From the IMG/VR virus record IMGVR_UViG_3300010275_000216: 46,051 nucleotides of DNA; one strand, 5' to 3'. Below the pieces are notes generated by a model. It saw nothing but the letters and a program-made list of their open reading frames with translations. It was not told the origin of the DNA and ran no database searches. Below, piece by piece: positions 2,148 to 41,137 of the stretch. Origin of the DNA: a virus (Duplodnaviria > Heunggongvirae > Uroviricota > Caudoviricetes). Position 1 is the first letter of the stretch; each line of letters starts with the position of its first letter. The translations under genes were made by a program, and so were the position numbers.

Positions 2148-2723
2148 CTACGGTAGGGCTGGCCATTCAATATCCGGTGCAGTTGATGTATCAACACGGT
2201 TCAGCAACACCCGATACTTTTTCCAGGCTTCCAGCAACAAGGTTTCTTTCTCCGTTGCGATCTCCAGATCCACAGCATCCTGAAGCGGCGCTATATGCTC
2301 ACTGGCTACCTGCATCAGGCTGTTTTTTGTTTCTTCCGCCTCCCGGATCCGGAACAGTTTTTCTGCTTCCGTATCCTTCACCCAGGCTGTGCCGTTCCAC
2401 TTCTGAAACTCCCCTTCCGGGGATAACCAGGTGACATTTTCCGGTAATGAGCCGAGTTCAGAAATAAATAACGCGTCGCCGGAAGCCACGTCATAGACCG
2501 TTTTTCCCCGATGGTCTTCAACGAGATGCCACGATGCCTCATCACTGTTGAAAACAGCCACAAAGCCAGCCGGAATATCTGGCGGTGCAATATCGGTACT
2601 GTTTGCAGGCAGACCTGTATGAGGCGGAATATATGCGTCACCTTCACCAATAAATTCATTAGTTCCGGCCAGCAGGTTATAAATTTTTATGGTCCGTGCT
2701 TGTTCACTCATTCTGAATGCCAT
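2148..2723 (-). CDS. tfa: tail fibre assembly protein Tfa
   Basis: N-terminus [38 protein letters not shown] matches my recollection of lambda Tfa along most of its length; start overlaps stf stop. Confidence 0.9.
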
Positions 2724-26985: not shown

Positions 26986-27192
26986 CTTCATTTTCACTTT
27001 TTTAAATCCAACGACAGACGGCTGGCATTTAAGTATTGTGAAATATTATCAAATGTAATCATCATTGATTTACAAAAGATACATTTTGCCCCGAAAGGAT
27101 TCATGTCAGAAACATCAAAAGATGATGTTCTATACTGGGAACCATGACAACACGGGCATCTAAAGTGAATATGGTTTGTAATATTGTCTACC

Positions 27193-27405
27193 TCAAAGCG
27201 CCACTACATGAACAGCGGCAGGACCTTTAGGTCCGTTCTCAATACCAAATTCAACTTCCTGATTCTCAGTTAATGTTTTGAAATCGTTGCTCTGAATTGC
27301 TGAGAAATGGACAAACACATCTTTGCTGCCATCTTTCGGCGTGATGAAACCAAAACCTTTTTCAGGGTTAAACCATTTCACTAAACCAGTCATTTTGTTA
27401 GACAT
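27193..27405 (-). CDS. cspI: cold shock protein, CspA family (70 aa), CspI-like
   Basis: [23 protein letters not shown]...[12 protein letters not shown] motifs; long upstream leader as in cold-shock genes. Confidence 0.8.
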
Positions 27406-27765
27406 AATTATTACCTTTTGAAGAAATTAGCCCTTGGGCAGAATGGTCCGAAAAAAAATATCAGAGAGAAAAACCAACAAGGAAATCCCAAGAGGTACAA
27501 ATAATAAAATTATAACAATGACTGCTTCAGATAAATTTGTAACAAACCAGAACACCATTAACGCATGATTAACCACCCATAGCAAGGATTACTTTTGTAA
27601 AGAAAAATACAGCAATGAAAGAATAGCTTTATTTATTAATAAAACGTGTCATTCTGATTAAGACCTTTTCTTACCCTTAAGATTTCAGGAATTTTGGCTC
27701 ATGGAAGAGTCCTTTTTATTTAAATTTTACATTCCGCGATGTAAATGTTCCGATTTAATATTACC

Positions 27766-29791: not shown

Positions 29792-30074
29792 TTGAGATTG
29801 TGGTGCTTTTTGTGGGAGTCATCCACTTACGCACTTTGTTTTGCGATGCCAGCAGTTAGCTTCTGCTGTGAAACTATTCATGCAGCAAACCTGCACTTCA
29901 CCACAATGGTTAGCATACTTTTCCTGATTAAGATTTTGCCAAATATGCTGGCCATTGTTTCATGTATTGGACCTCCTTACTTTTTATTAAAGAGATCCAA
30001 TATTCACTACTCTGTCCGTATCTCTACTCAGGCATCAGCCTTCTTCGTTATCGTATACAGACGAGCGATGAATT

Positions 30075-30290
30075 TTAATCAGTAATGATGACATTTACTG
30101 CTGCAGGACCTTTAGCACCACTCTCTATAGAGAAGGTAACCTTTTGACCTTCAAATAAGGTTCGATAATTATCATTCTGAATCGCAGAAAAATGCACAAA
30201 CACATCTTTACTACCATCAACAGGAGAAATAAAGCCGAAACCTTTATCAGCGTTAAACCATTTTACTAAACCAGTCATTTTATTTGACAT
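30075..30290 (-). CDS. cspB: cold shock protein CspB-like (71 aa)
   Basis: [23 protein letters not shown]...; divergent from cspF as in Qin. Confidence 0.8.
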
Positions 30291-30590
30291 TCTACATTCC
30301 TTAACTTGAGCCTTTCGGCATAAATGGTTTGCATAACAGAAACGACTTCGTACTTAATTGGAGAGACTCAAAGAAGGAATAAGTGAATAACACCTGAAAT
30401 GAGAACTGCTTTAGTAAACTACTTCGTATATCGTCTGTTCTTCAAACCGACGCAATCATTAACGCATAGTTGAACATATGAAGCAATGTTTATTTTAGAC
30501 ATCCAGCCATCTTCAACCCCATCAAAAAACTATAGCTTTCTTCAGGAACGTGTGTATAGTGCGCCAAGTTATCAGTATTAAGGAATTTTT

Positions 30591-33684: not shown

Positions 33685-34734
33685 TTACGCCAGTACGCCT
33701 ATTGCCAGCGCACGATCGATAAAACGAAATATCAGCTCCAGTTGGGAGCCATACTTCTCTTCAAATGCCACGGTATTCGCATGCAGCTCGTCGTGATGCT
33801 TTCTGCACAAAGGCAACACAAAGAGATCATGTGCTTTGGTTCCCATTCCGCCCTGCCCGTGACCAATCAGATGATGCGGATCGTCGGCTGGCATACCGCA
33901 GCAAGCACACGGCTGTGTCTTAACCCAGCGTGTGTATTTCTCCTTAACCCAACGGTGACGTTTAGGCAGCTTCATGAAAGATTCCGGAGACTCTGGATCA
34001 ACGGTGATGCTTACCACCGTCTTTTCCTGTGATGGGTTTTGTTGCTGGTGGGCGTGAGGCAACGGTGCAAGATTTTTTGTGCGCTGTTTCAATATGCTGG
34101 TGGCGGTCTGCTCTCCCGGTACGATGTCGCTTTCGCGGTACACCGAGCAGTTTTTTTCCGCTGGTAATCCCAGCGAGCGACGTAATACCGCTTCCGGTAG
34201 CGCGTCCGCCACCTGATTGCGGACCGCCCACCAGGATAATTCAGCCAGAGATAATTCACGCTCCTGCGTACCGCTTATTGCGTGACCGATGACGTCAATC
34301 ATCCATGCTGACAGGTTTTGATGAGCAAGTTGCTCGAGTGATTCGGATGTCTGGTCACGCAGCTGGTTGTCGCAGTGCCAGCACAACACCATTGCGCCGG
34401 TACCATAACGGTGAATAACGGTTTCACTGTGATGATAATCGCCGTGTGGCCACTGGCAGGATTTAATATGGCGCAACAGCCAGTCAGACAATGCACCAGC
34501 ACCACCAGCAGCACGAATTACCCGTGCGTTACTGAAAAACGGCAGCAATGTTTTGTCTTCCACCAGCGGCTGGCGAACGGCAGGAACGACCCCGGACGGC
34601 AGATTACGCATGCTTTTCGGTTCCGGCTCCACCAGTACCCGGGTATTGTGGAATACCGGCATGGATTCACGGCCCGGCTTAACGACCACCAGCCCGAGTT
34701 CCGGTACCAGAACAGGTCGAAGTAATACCCGCAC
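33685..34734 (-). CDS. ydfU: DUF968-family protein YdfU-like (349 aa), GTG start
   Basis: Same length and position (just before Q) as ydfU of Qin; C-terminal Cys/His-rich motif CACCG...HHLIGHG...CRKHHDELH. Confidence 0.6.
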   Translation of the reverse strand: MRVLLRPVLVPELGLVVVKPGRESMPVFHNTRVLVEPEPKSMRNLPSGVVPAVRQPLVEDKTLLPFFSNARVIRAAGGAGALSDWLLRHIKSCQWPHGDYHHSETVIHRYGTGAMVLCWHCDNQLRDQTSESLEQLAHQNLSAWMIDVIGHAISGTQERELSLAELSWWAVRNQVADALPEAVLRRSLGLPAEKNCSVYRESDIVPGEQTATSILKQRTKNLAPLPHAHQQQNPSQEKTVVSITVDPESPESFMKLPKRHRWVKEKYTRWVKTQPCACCGMPADDPHHLIGHGQGGMGTKAHDLFVLPLCRKHHDELHANTVAFEEKYGSQLELIFRFIDRALAIGVLA

Positions 34735-34735
34735 G

Positions 34736-35014
34736 TTACCTCCAGATGCGTTGCTGGAATGTACGGGACGGACGCGGTGGGCGTTCGGAGTAAGGCAATC
34801 TGACTGAGATTATCCAGTGACGGTAGTCGAGACTAAGGGCTTTCTTAACCTCGTATCCGCGCCTGCGGTAACACTGAATTATCCATTCAGCCTGCTCTTC
34901 AGTGCATGGAGGGTGCTGGAACCATTCAGACTTGAATGCGTGAGAATACCGCTCGTGCGTGCAGGCAAGAACGGGCGAATTATCAGAATTGTAATATTTT
35001 ACGTTGCGTGCCAT
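34736..35014 (-). CDS. hypothetical protein (92 aa)
   Basis: ATG with GGAG SD; stop abuts ydfU start. Confidence 0.45.
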   Translation of the reverse strand: MARNVKYYNSDNSPVLACTHERYSHAFKSEWFQHPPCTEEQAEWIIQCYRRRGYEVKKALSLDYRHWIISVRLPYSERPPRPSRTFQQRIWR

Positions 35015-35080
35015 CGGTTTTCTCCGGTGGCACGGTGTTACTCAGCGGGAGTTCAGCCCCGCGCAAGATTGTAGATGAGT

Positions 35081-35332
35081 TTATTCTTCTGCAAAAGCTG
35101 AAAAGCCTGCTTTTATTCCGATCTCTTTCAGTGCCTGTAATGAAGTGACAAACTCACCTTCGCGCAAGATAAATCCGTCTGTCACTCGACCATCCACAAA
35201 ATTAATTAACGCAGCCCCATTCTTTCGCAAACACATAATGCGGTAATGACTAACAAGATTTCCATTTTCAACGCACACAGCATAGAGGCCATCTTCACAA
35301 AAAATTTTACGCAGTTCTTCGATGTTCATCAT
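35081..35332 (-). CDS. hypothetical protein (83 aa), Rem-like by length and position
   Basis: ATGATG start with GGAAGGA SD; located between hok and ydfU where rem lies in Qin. Confidence 0.4.
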   Translation of the reverse strand: MMNIEELRKIFCEDGLYAVCVENGNLVSHYRIMCLRKNGAALINFVDGRVTDGFILREGEFVTSLQALKEIGIKAGFSAFAEE

Positions 35333-35462
35333 CAGAATCCTTCCGGATAATTAGCTCTCCCCTTTAAGGGACCATCCCTCTTATCCCTGCGCGCTACTTA
35401 AGTATTTTTGATTCTATTCCGGCACCGTCCAGAACTTCAAACGCGTTGAAAATAAAAACAAA

Positions 35463-35480
35463 AACCCGCCGAAGCGGGTT
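35463..35480 (-). terminator. terminator AACCCGC-TTCG-GCGGGTT plus T-run downstream of hok
   Basis: Read on minus strand about 70 nt after hok stop; a second hairpin GGCGAGGGA-TTTC-TCCCTCGCC at about 35520-35543 directly follows the stop. Confidence 0.55.
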
Positions 35481-35548
35481 AAGTGCGGGTGCGTTGAGGA
35501 TGCCTGCCACATCAGAGGTGGCGAGGGATTTCTCCCTCGCCGGGTCTC

Positions 35549-35704
35549 TTACTCCTCAGGTTCGTAAGCTGTGAAGACAGCGACCTCCGTCTGGCCGGTT
35601 CGGATTCGTACCTCGCAGAGGTCTTTCCTCGTTACCAGTGCCGTCACTATGACGGTTAAACAAATGACGATCAGGGCGATTAACATCGCCTTTTGCTGCT
35701 TCAT
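35549..35704 (-). CDS. hokD: Hok-family type I toxin (51 aa), HokD/RelF-like
   Basis: MKQQKAMLIALIVICLTVIVTALVTRKDLCEVRIRTGQTEVAVFTAYEPEE; AGGAG SD. Confidence 0.85.
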   Translation of the reverse strand: MKQQKAMLIALIVICLTVIVTALVTRKDLCEVRIRTGQTEVAVFTAYEPEE

Positions 35705-35900
35705 AGCCTGCTTCTCCTTGCCTTTCGGCACGTAAGAGGCTAACCTACATGTGTCTAGCATGAAATTGGCCTCAGATTAATGTTAAGCGTCTTGCAGGAC
35801 GCGTAATGTTAACTGGGGCTTTTCTCTATCTGCCGTTGGTGTTCATGCCCGAGGCAGATAGCCTCAAGCACCCGCAGCCATTCTACTTAACTACCGTTAC
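35705..35900. promoter_or_regulatory. hok leader region: in-frame 19-codon upstream extension (mok-like) and candidate antisense Sok-type RNA on plus strand
   Basis: ORF-track 70-aa form starts at ATG 35761; plus-strand promoter-like TTGCCT-17-TAACCT at about 35717-35745 oriented antisense to hok; inference only. Confidence 0.3.
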
Positions 35901-36319
35901 CTCGCCAATATGAAATCAATCAGTAAGGTGATCCATAAGAACAATAACAAGACAATAAATTGCCATTACAGCCACAATAGCCAGCGTGCATTTGAGAACC
36001 AGCACATAAATCTCCTGCTCTTGACGTATACAGGCACTGATAAATATGTGTCTTCGTGCTCGTTACTTCAATACGTAAGCGTCAGTTGCGCGTAATCAAA
36101 TCAGACAACCGACTTTAAACCAGGGACAAACAGCAGGTAAAATAATCAAACGTTATTTTAAGCCATATCATGGCTTCAAGATTTCCTCTAATTTCAACAA
36201 GATGAGCAGGTCATTGCTTGCACTGATGACCTGCTCATTAATCATGATTATTTGAAAATTAAGGTAGGCGTACTATATATAGAAACACTGCTACGCTCCG
36301 TTGTTGGCATAATATAAAA

Positions 36320-37006
36320 TCATTCCTGCCCTTCTTTACCGTAGTGGAGTTGACCAATTTTGATTAGAGGGCGTCCCTGAGATTTGCGGTGTAGATTGGT
36401 ATCGCGCAGTGAATACACGCAGCCACAATATTCCTGCTGATAGAATTGTTCGCGCTTGCTGATTTCAATCATGCGGGAAGAGCCGCCCTGCTTTCGCCAG
36501 TTATAATCCCAGTACACCATGCCCGGATAATACGCGACGGCTCGCCGTCCACAGTCGTTAACCTGCTGCATATTTTTCCAGCGTGAAATGCCCAGTGAGC
36601 TACTGATCACACTGAAACCATTTTCAGCGGCATACAGCGCAGTCCGCTCAAAACGCATGTCAAAACACATGGTACAACGGATCCCTCGTTCAGGCTCCCA
36701 TTCCATTCCTTTGGCTCGCTCAAACCAGTTGTCTGTGTCGTAATCAGCATCAATAAATGGCACGCCGTGTTGTTTAGCAAAGCGAATATTCTCATCCTTA
36801 CGAATTAAATACTCTTTCTGAGGATGAATGTTCGGGTTGTAGAAAAAGATGGTGTAGTCGATTCCCGAGGCCTGAAGCGCCTCCATCACTTCACCGGAAC
36901 ATGGAGCACAGCAAGAGTGCAGTAATAGTTTTTTTGCCCCGTTTGGGAGCTCCAATTTGGGGCGTTTGAAATCAGCAACAGTCATAAATGTGTTTATGAG
37001 GTTCAT
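36320..37006 (-). CDS. queH: QueH-like epoxyqueuosine reductase (DUF208)
   Basis: N-terminal [13 protein letters not shown], later CTMCFDMRF and QEYCGC motifs typical of DUF208/QueH; start uncertain (ATG 37006 or 36985, ORF-track GTG 37099), no clear SD. Confidence 0.55.
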
Positions 37007-37038
37007 GAAAATAGCAAAAAGTGTAGCATCAGAACGGG

Positions 37039-37341
37039 CTATCGGAAACAGATGTCTAAATCTGGTAATGTCTGCTTTTGATGCAAAGCAGACAACCACG
37101 GCAGCGCACGAAAATCAGCGATAATGTCGGGATTAATAATCGGGTGACGTCCATCACATAGCGAATGTTCCTCTTTCCTGATATCGCTAAATATCGACCA
37201 TTCGTCATTCTTATCGAACCAGAGCATGCGACTGCCACAGCACATGTCGAGAATGGTAGCCGATGTACTCACAGCATCACCTCCCGATAATTCCCCTGAT
37301 AAAACGTCAGAACACGCTGCATAACTTCGCTCTTCCGGCAC
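37039..37341 (-). CDS. doubtful ORF (100 aa, GTG start) overlapping neighbours in other frames; possibly remnant of a frameshifted gene
   Basis: No SD at any candidate start; overlaps 3' end of the 140-aa gene and 5' region of the QueH-like ORF. Confidence 0.2.
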
Positions 37342-41079: not shown

Positions 41080-41137
41080 TTTCTGGTGACGTTTGGCGGT
41101 ATCAGTTTTACTCCGTGACTGCTCTGCCGCCGTTTTT
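41080..41137 (+). ncRNA. dicF: DicF small RNA (ftsZ-targeting sRNA of the dicB operon) with terminator U-tract
   Basis: TTTCTGGTGACGTTTGGCGGTATCAGTTTTACTCCGTGACTGCTCTGCCGCCGTTTTT matches the DicF sequence as I recall it over 52 of 53 nt; correct operon position between ydfBC and dicB. Confidence 0.8.

Follow-up and report, generated by a model that had tools for sequence, protein, structure and literature searches.

The window analyzed here, a 46,051-nt stretch of E. coli prophage DNA, carries on its minus strand an intact hok/mok/sok type I toxin-antitoxin cassette that goes by the name hokD in RefSeq and that we place, with a probability of roughly 90%, in the same subfamily as hokW-sokW of the Stx phages 933W and Sp5, with a mechanism proposed from plasmid R1 and Sp5. 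The locus is an already known and very common element: the window DNA is 100% identical to hokD-annotated loci in several complete E. coli genomes, and among the matches listed the 701-bp stretch 35400-36100 recurs at 100% identity in at least eight complete genomes. The subfamily was described with phage 933W and was experimentally tested in Sp5 (PMC8621323). We saw no frameshift, stop or insertion element within any element of the cassette. The first-pass annotation had described a free-standing locus of the hok/sok type, and that description is upheld by the match of the leader to Rfam RF01794, by the 5'/3' fold-back in the predicted fold of the mRNA, and by an antisense promoter and Sok body homologous to those of sokW. 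RefSeq marks only the hok CDS and leaves mok and Sok unannotated, so that a reader used to K-12 may take the normal form of the locus for an unusual one.

The toxin gene encodes the 51-residue protein MKQQKAMLIALIVICLTVIVTALVTRKDLCEVRIRTGQTEVAVFTAYEPEE, which matches Pfam HOK_GEF (PF01848) at E=3e-23 (81.6 bits versus a cutoff of 22) and shows 100% identity to K-12 HokD in a tblastn comparison, bearing out the earlier reading of the Hok peptide as intact. The NCBIfam Hok subfamily model scores this protein below its cutoff (48.5 versus 73 bits), and RefSeq names the identical protein HokD. We also observed that the codon for Hok Tyr47 (~35563-35566, minus strand) lies in a TACG context, with a sequence identical to that of K-12; TACG is the reported motif for A-to-I editing by TadA, and low-level Tyr-to-Cys recoding occurs in K-12 hokD mRNA (PMC12214031).

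An ATG at 35761, with a GAGG Shine-Dalgarno sequence 8 nt upstream, opens a 70-codon frame that adds 19 codons before hok, as had been proposed for a mok-like in-frame extension, and PHROG 251 ('MokW-like host killing') matches this frame at E=7.7e-33. In-frame mok is normal for the subfamily, mokW of 933W likewise ending at the hok stop codon. The mok start is present in six relatives, with a frame that varies: in an alignment of relatives, the window, 933W and PPompW have mok and hok in one frame, Rac442 and a P1-like plasmid-phage have mok in the +1 frame with a 68-aa product, and in PhiR12_3 mok is a 17-codon ORF ending just before the hok ATG. This variability fits the established view that it is the translation of mok that matters, and not its product (PMC9841398). 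Separately, comparison of window positions 35705-35761 with relatives L004-L009 shows that the mok frame is switched by a 1-nt indel, located in a small hairpin within the Sok promoter region.

The predicted hok/mok promoter scores 9 of 12 consensus matches, its -10 region (AGTTAAGTAGAAT) is kept in relatives, and from its sequence it is presumably active. We infer that the mRNA begins at G35873, 7 nt past the -10 box, which is also where the Rfam model starts. The full-length 414-nt transcript predicted from this start to the terminator T-run (Table 1) is homologous to the 933W hokW locus along its length and folds with a minimum energy of -170.6 kcal/mol (z = -7.6 versus shuffles). In this fold the first 12 nt of the mRNA (tac) form a 12-bp helix with the fold-back inhibition (fbi) element near the 3' end (35873-35862 with 35499-35487), and the mok Shine-Dalgarno sequence is buried opposite GCCCC (ucb), an arrangement of fold-back and Shine-Dalgarno sequestration that has been described for plasmid R1 (PMC9841398). 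The covariance-model search that had been called for earlier was positive, with RF01794 matching over its full length and well above its gathering score.

Table 1. Coordinates of the elements of the hok/mok/sok locus in the window.
Feature	Position	Strand	Basis and details
hok/mok mRNA promoter (predicted)	35880..35908	-	consensus scan: TTGGCG (35908-35903), 17-nt spacer, TAGAAT (35885-35880)
Full-length hok mRNA, 414 nt (predicted)	35460..35873	-	3' end at terminator T-run
hok leader, Rfam RF01794 ('sok')	35699..35873	-	115.3 bits, gathering score 59, E=6.2e-27, full model 1-157
tac element GGGUGCUUGAGG, mRNA 5' end, first 12 nt	35862..35873	-	minimum-energy fold; named after R1 model (PMC9841398)
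mok reading frame, 70 codons, in frame with hok	35549..35761	-	ORF list; Shine-Dalgarno GAGG 35770-35773
hok toxin gene, 51 aa	35549..35704	-	Shine-Dalgarno GGAG 35714-35717; Pfam HOK_GEF, tblastn
First 3'-UTR hairpin, GGCGAGGGA-GAAA-TCCCTCGCC, 9 bp GC-rich, GAAA loop	35520..35541	-	folds
fbi (fold-back inhibition) element CCUCAACGCACCC	35487..35499	-	complementary to tac, one bulged C; minimum-energy fold
Intrinsic terminator of hok mRNA	35453..35480	-	terminator scan; 7-bp GC stem AACCCGC-TTCG-GCGGGTT (35480..35463), UUCG loop, T-run
Sok promoter (predicted)	35718..35746	+	-35 TTGCCT (35718-35723), 17-nt spacer, -10 TAACCT (35741-35746); identity to Sp5
Sok antisense RNA, 71 nt (predicted)	35753..35823	+	coordinates carried over from 933W sokW misc_RNA via alignment

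RF01794 bears the name 'sok antitoxin', and its match, which stops at the hok AUG, is to the sense strand of hok. The family thus behaves as a hok-leader model, and its strand calls, which give the strand of hok and not that of Sok, should be treated with care.

Downstream of the stop codon, the first-pass annotation had seen two hairpins and taken them for the fold-back element itself. Both hairpins are present; the fold-back element is neither of them, since fbi sits between the two. The first hairpin likely forms the protective 3' end of the processed mRNA, by analogy with R1 (PMC9841398), and two of its pairs are changed on both sides among relatives. The tac/fbi helix is 97.6% paired across seven relatives, with only one-sided G-U changes. 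Across eight related loci, 93.5% of cells are paired in the structure as a whole (slid controls, ~33-41%), and 12 pairs change on both sides compared to 4.5 ± 1.7 in shuffles, with none of 500 shuffles reaching the observed value; because these eight sequences are few and closely related, one of them (the window) also having supplied the structure, we regard this covariation as supportive and not decisive. When the mRNA is truncated at its 3' end (35516-35873), the 5' end rearranges locally and the mok Shine-Dalgarno sequence is still paired at minimum energy, indicating that the activating refolding is not reproduced by thermodynamic prediction, a result that counts neither in favor of activation nor against it.

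A scan of 34500-37000 also returned Rfam matches below their gathering scores. We rejected isrK, a Salmonella prophage sRNA family, on the hok 3' UTR (35459..35540, minus strand; 25.7 bits versus a gathering score of 50, E=0.007), which probably reflects the two-hairpin shape, as well as rsmX on the same 3' UTR (21.5 bits versus 56). Matches to ceN48 and fungal SRP in the region of the hok leader were rejected too, since generic hairpin or terminator shapes account for all of these.

The position of the antisense RNA was taken from the 933W record AF125520, which lists mokW and hokW together with a sokW antisense RNA of 71 nt, and it agrees with the earlier guess of an antisense transcript at about 35750-35820. 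The predicted Sok folds (-28.7 kcal/mol, z = -5.1) into a long terminator hairpin, preceded by a single-stranded 5' tail of 15 nt and followed by a U-run. It spans the mok start codon and the mok Shine-Dalgarno sequence and leaves the hok Shine-Dalgarno sequence and start outside, following the same logic as in R1, where hok is controlled indirectly through mok. A consensus sigma-70 scan of the window did not find the Sok promoter, whose -10 box TAACCT is a poor match to consensus, and we placed it instead by identity with the Sp5 sequence and with the primers used on it. Probe YO-597 of Takada et al. matches 35716-35745 exactly, the primers bounding their pACYC184-sokW fragment match 35701-35722 and 35835-35855 exactly, and their 'pro-less' primer YO-421 rewrites precisely the -10 hexamer found in the window. 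In Sp5, sokW was seen on northern blots, mutation of the sokW -10 box ('pro-less') abolished antitoxin activity, and Sok supplied in trans restored protection (PMC8621323). Judging from this agreement in sequence, we infer that Sok would be transcribed from the window locus as well. The Sok 5' tail and mok-start segment (~35753-35776) is the most variable transcribed part of the locus, with 65-68% mean pairwise identity among relatives; tac, the Sok promoter and the CDS stand at 87-95%. This pattern is as expected if coexisting hok copies diversify their recognition sequence, and may reflect divergence in Sok-target specificity.

Taken as a whole, the window represents most of a lambdoid (lambda-like) E. 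coli prophage in reverse orientation, in the order tail, head, terminase, lysis, Q, hok locus, queH, DUF977 gene, O-like replication gene, immunity region, DicF, exonuclease and integrase. A 24-kb query from its right half aligned to the 45-kb phage genome HannyBb at 98.6% identity over 84% of its length. The hok locus lies in the early-right (nin-like) region, between queH and rem-ydfU-Q, and has the orientation of the early-right operon, which runs O-like gene, DUF977, queH, hok, rem, ydfU, Q; a terminator scan predicted no terminator between queH and hok. The gene just upstream, at 36320..37099 (minus strand), encodes the epoxyqueuosine reductase QueH (Pfam E=4e-65), a phage-borne tRNA-modification gene. 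Elsewhere in the window, Rfam matches at gathering score comprise IS009 RNA (2182..2380, minus strand), two cspA-type thermoregulator leaders of cspB/cspF-like prophage cold-shock genes (27166..27551 and 30028..30451, both minus strand) and the DicF sRNA (41081..41132, plus strand). In strain 2012C-4221 (NZ_CP027437.1, 5808-7609) the hok region is otherwise identical, and an IS100/IS21-family insertion lies just beyond queH and is followed directly by dicB, indicating that the early region there is truncated relative to the window.

Immediately upstream of the hok promoter we observed an unannotated, hydrophobic ORF of 29 codons, MLVLKCTLAIVAVMAIYCLVIVLMDHLTD (35916..36005, minus strand), with a GTG start, a strong Shine-Dalgarno sequence (GGAG) at 36012-36015, and a stop codon 9 nt before the hok -35 box. 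Pfam, NCBIfam and PHROG contain no family matching the peptide. Across six loci it occurs as five DNA variants encoding five peptide variants, with length, start and stop all kept; the changes are synonymous and conservative, and the upstream flank diverges. Four phage records were the only ones to contain it by tblastn (HannyBb, mEp460_ev081, Tritos and Evi), and it adjoins hok in those whose surroundings were compared; the 415-bp spacer around it occurs in 117 of 5426 E. coli genomes, REL606 included. We consider it very unlikely that this ORF is a functional fourth component of a hok subtype, whether as a second membrane peptide or as a translated leader whose transcript continues into hok and couples the release of Hok to early-right (pR) transcription at induction.

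We assign the molecular mechanism of the locus by homology, with high confidence; its steps are those of plasmid R1 and phage Sp5, and the window supplies the sequence elements. A weak constitutive promoter would produce a stable hok mRNA of ~410 nt, in which tac pairs with fbi and the mok Shine-Dalgarno sequence is buried in a stem with ucb, so that the full-length RNA is proposed to be neither translated nor bound by Sok. Slow 3' trimming to the first hairpin would remove fbi, allowing the leader to refold and mok to become translatable. Ribosomes on mok would then pass through the hok start region and bring about Hok synthesis, and at this locus mok translation should also yield a 70-aa Mok-Hok fusion. 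As long as it is made, the short-lived 71-nt Sok would pair with the mok start region, blocking translation of mok and hence of hok and marking the duplex for RNase III. Once Sok synthesis ends, which could follow prophage loss, a transcription block or prophage induction, the stable processed mRNA would be translated, and the 51-aa Hok would enter the inner membrane and collapse the membrane potential.

The most likely physiological role, by analogy with hokW-sokW, is prophage retention through post-segregational killing and/or help with lysis at induction. Whether lysis timing is the main role, to the exclusion of retention, is more doubtful, though it is the alternative to which we give the most weight: induction would remove Sok, and Hok would damage the membrane before holin and endolysin act, releasing more phage as in Sp5. 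[quoted passage not shown] In the window the neighboring genes all lie on the hok strand with no intervening terminator predicted after queH, such that read-through from pR could run into Sok transcription and also supply additional hok-sense RNA. However, hokW of 933W sits at the far end of its genome in a different transcriptional context, so the read-through idea is not transferable from the tested system.

It is unlikely that the cassette serves chiefly as an abortive-infection defense, in which a lytic phage would stop host transcription, Sok would be depleted, and Hok would kill the host before the infecting phage has finished its cycle. R1 hok-sok on a high-copy plasmid cut the plating efficiency and plaque size of T4 (cited in PMC8621323), but the effect was modest and confined to high copy number, and the survey in bioRxiv 10.1101/2025.08.07.668861 found no enrichment of hok near defense systems.

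Quite improbable, too, is a complete but silent cassette that, like most hok loci of K-12, is a chromosomal relic in decay with no effect on host or phage. In its favor, chromosomal hokA, hokB and hokC gave no post-segregational killing and no rifampicin response in earlier tests (summarized in bioRxiv 10.1101/2025.08.07.668861), the hokA, hokC, hokD and hokE loci of K-12 are considered inactive (PMC12214031), the Sok -10 box is weak by consensus, and decay does occur, as in the close relative phage 666R9, whose hok is frameshifted and whose fbi region is broken. Against it, every element in the window is intact, its tac stem-loop and the segments of its Sok promoter match the experimentally active hokW-sokW at 100% identity, and its host element resembles a viable phage (HannyBb).

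Among the closest known systems to this hok/mok/sok cassette is hokW-mokW-sokW of 933W/Sp5 (AF125520; Takada et al. 2021, PMC8621323), which shares 93.8% DNA identity with the window over 416 nt, including identical tac stem-loop and Sok promoter segments and a mokW in frame through the same 57-nt leader. Toxicity of HokW and its neutralization by sokW have been demonstrated (PMC8621323), and HokW is 92% identical as a protein to the Hok of the window, with 47 of 51 residues shared and C-terminal residues that differ (TAYEPEE in the window against VDYESEK). The Sok hairpins differ by 1 nt, whereas the Sok 5' tail and mok-start segments are only 75% identical, suggesting that cross-recognition between the window's Sok and sokW may be reduced. 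The two loci also differ in genomic position, the window's hok lying in the nin-like region and hokW at the far right end of the 933W genome.

The hok/mok/sok (parB) locus of plasmid R1 contains the same elements in the same order as the window (tac, ucb, mok Shine-Dalgarno sequence, Sok target and Sok promoter in the leader, followed by hok, the 3' hairpin, fbi and terminator), and RF01794, a model built around R1-like loci, matches the window over its full length. The R1 Hok protein, however, is only about 44% identical, a figure obtained for the near-identical HokW; its mok overlaps hok out of frame, whereas that of the window is in frame, and the R1 locus resides on a plasmid and not in a prophage. 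The E. coli hokC (gef)/mokC locus resembles the window in having an in-frame mok with an extended product of ~70 aa, and the 933W record calls MokW 'similar to Gef+leader protein'. Unlike the window locus, hokC is a separate chromosomal locus outside any prophage, and an insertion element is considered to have inactivated its K-12 copy (PMC12214031).

[quoted passage not shown] The first-pass annotation had noted no relBE upstream of hok, and this held: a tblastn search of the 46-kb window with K-12 RelE and RelB found no homologs (best E=1.6), which also rules out relBE elsewhere in the window, and the upstream ORFs encode QueH, a DUF977 protein and an O-like replication protein in place of the relB and relE that lie directly upstream in Qin. 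An assembly artefact that removed relBE is likewise ruled out, because many complete genomes share this arrangement, as does a deposited phage genome. The complete E. coli genomes compared number 5426, and 4287 of them have an intact leader (at least 80% coverage; median two copies, up to nine) compared to 1167 with the K-12 relE-hokD junction, indicating that the absence of relBE is unremarkable and that the free-standing form is the normal one. K-12 Qin encodes an identical Hok protein, the same 3' UTR with hairpin, fbi and terminator, and the same downstream genes (rem, ydfU, ydfT/Q); along the 2.9 kb that run from the Q gene through hokD, identity is 92.8%. Homology to the window ends at 35718, 14 nt upstream of the hok ATG, beyond which K-12 carries relE-relB; K-12 hokD is consequently without the hok promoter, tac, the mok start, the Sok target and most of the Sok gene, all of which the window has. 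The position of this break indicates that K-12 is the rearranged version and the window the unrearranged one, with the K-12 leader replaced by relB-relE such that hokD became the third gene of a protein-regulated operon. K-12 hokD is co-transcribed with relBE (PMC3598666), and PMC12214031, citing the original hok survey, already sees it as a rearranged locus missing canonical components. The window thereby provides a clean, unrearranged reference for K-12 hokD as it was before relBE took the place of the leader.
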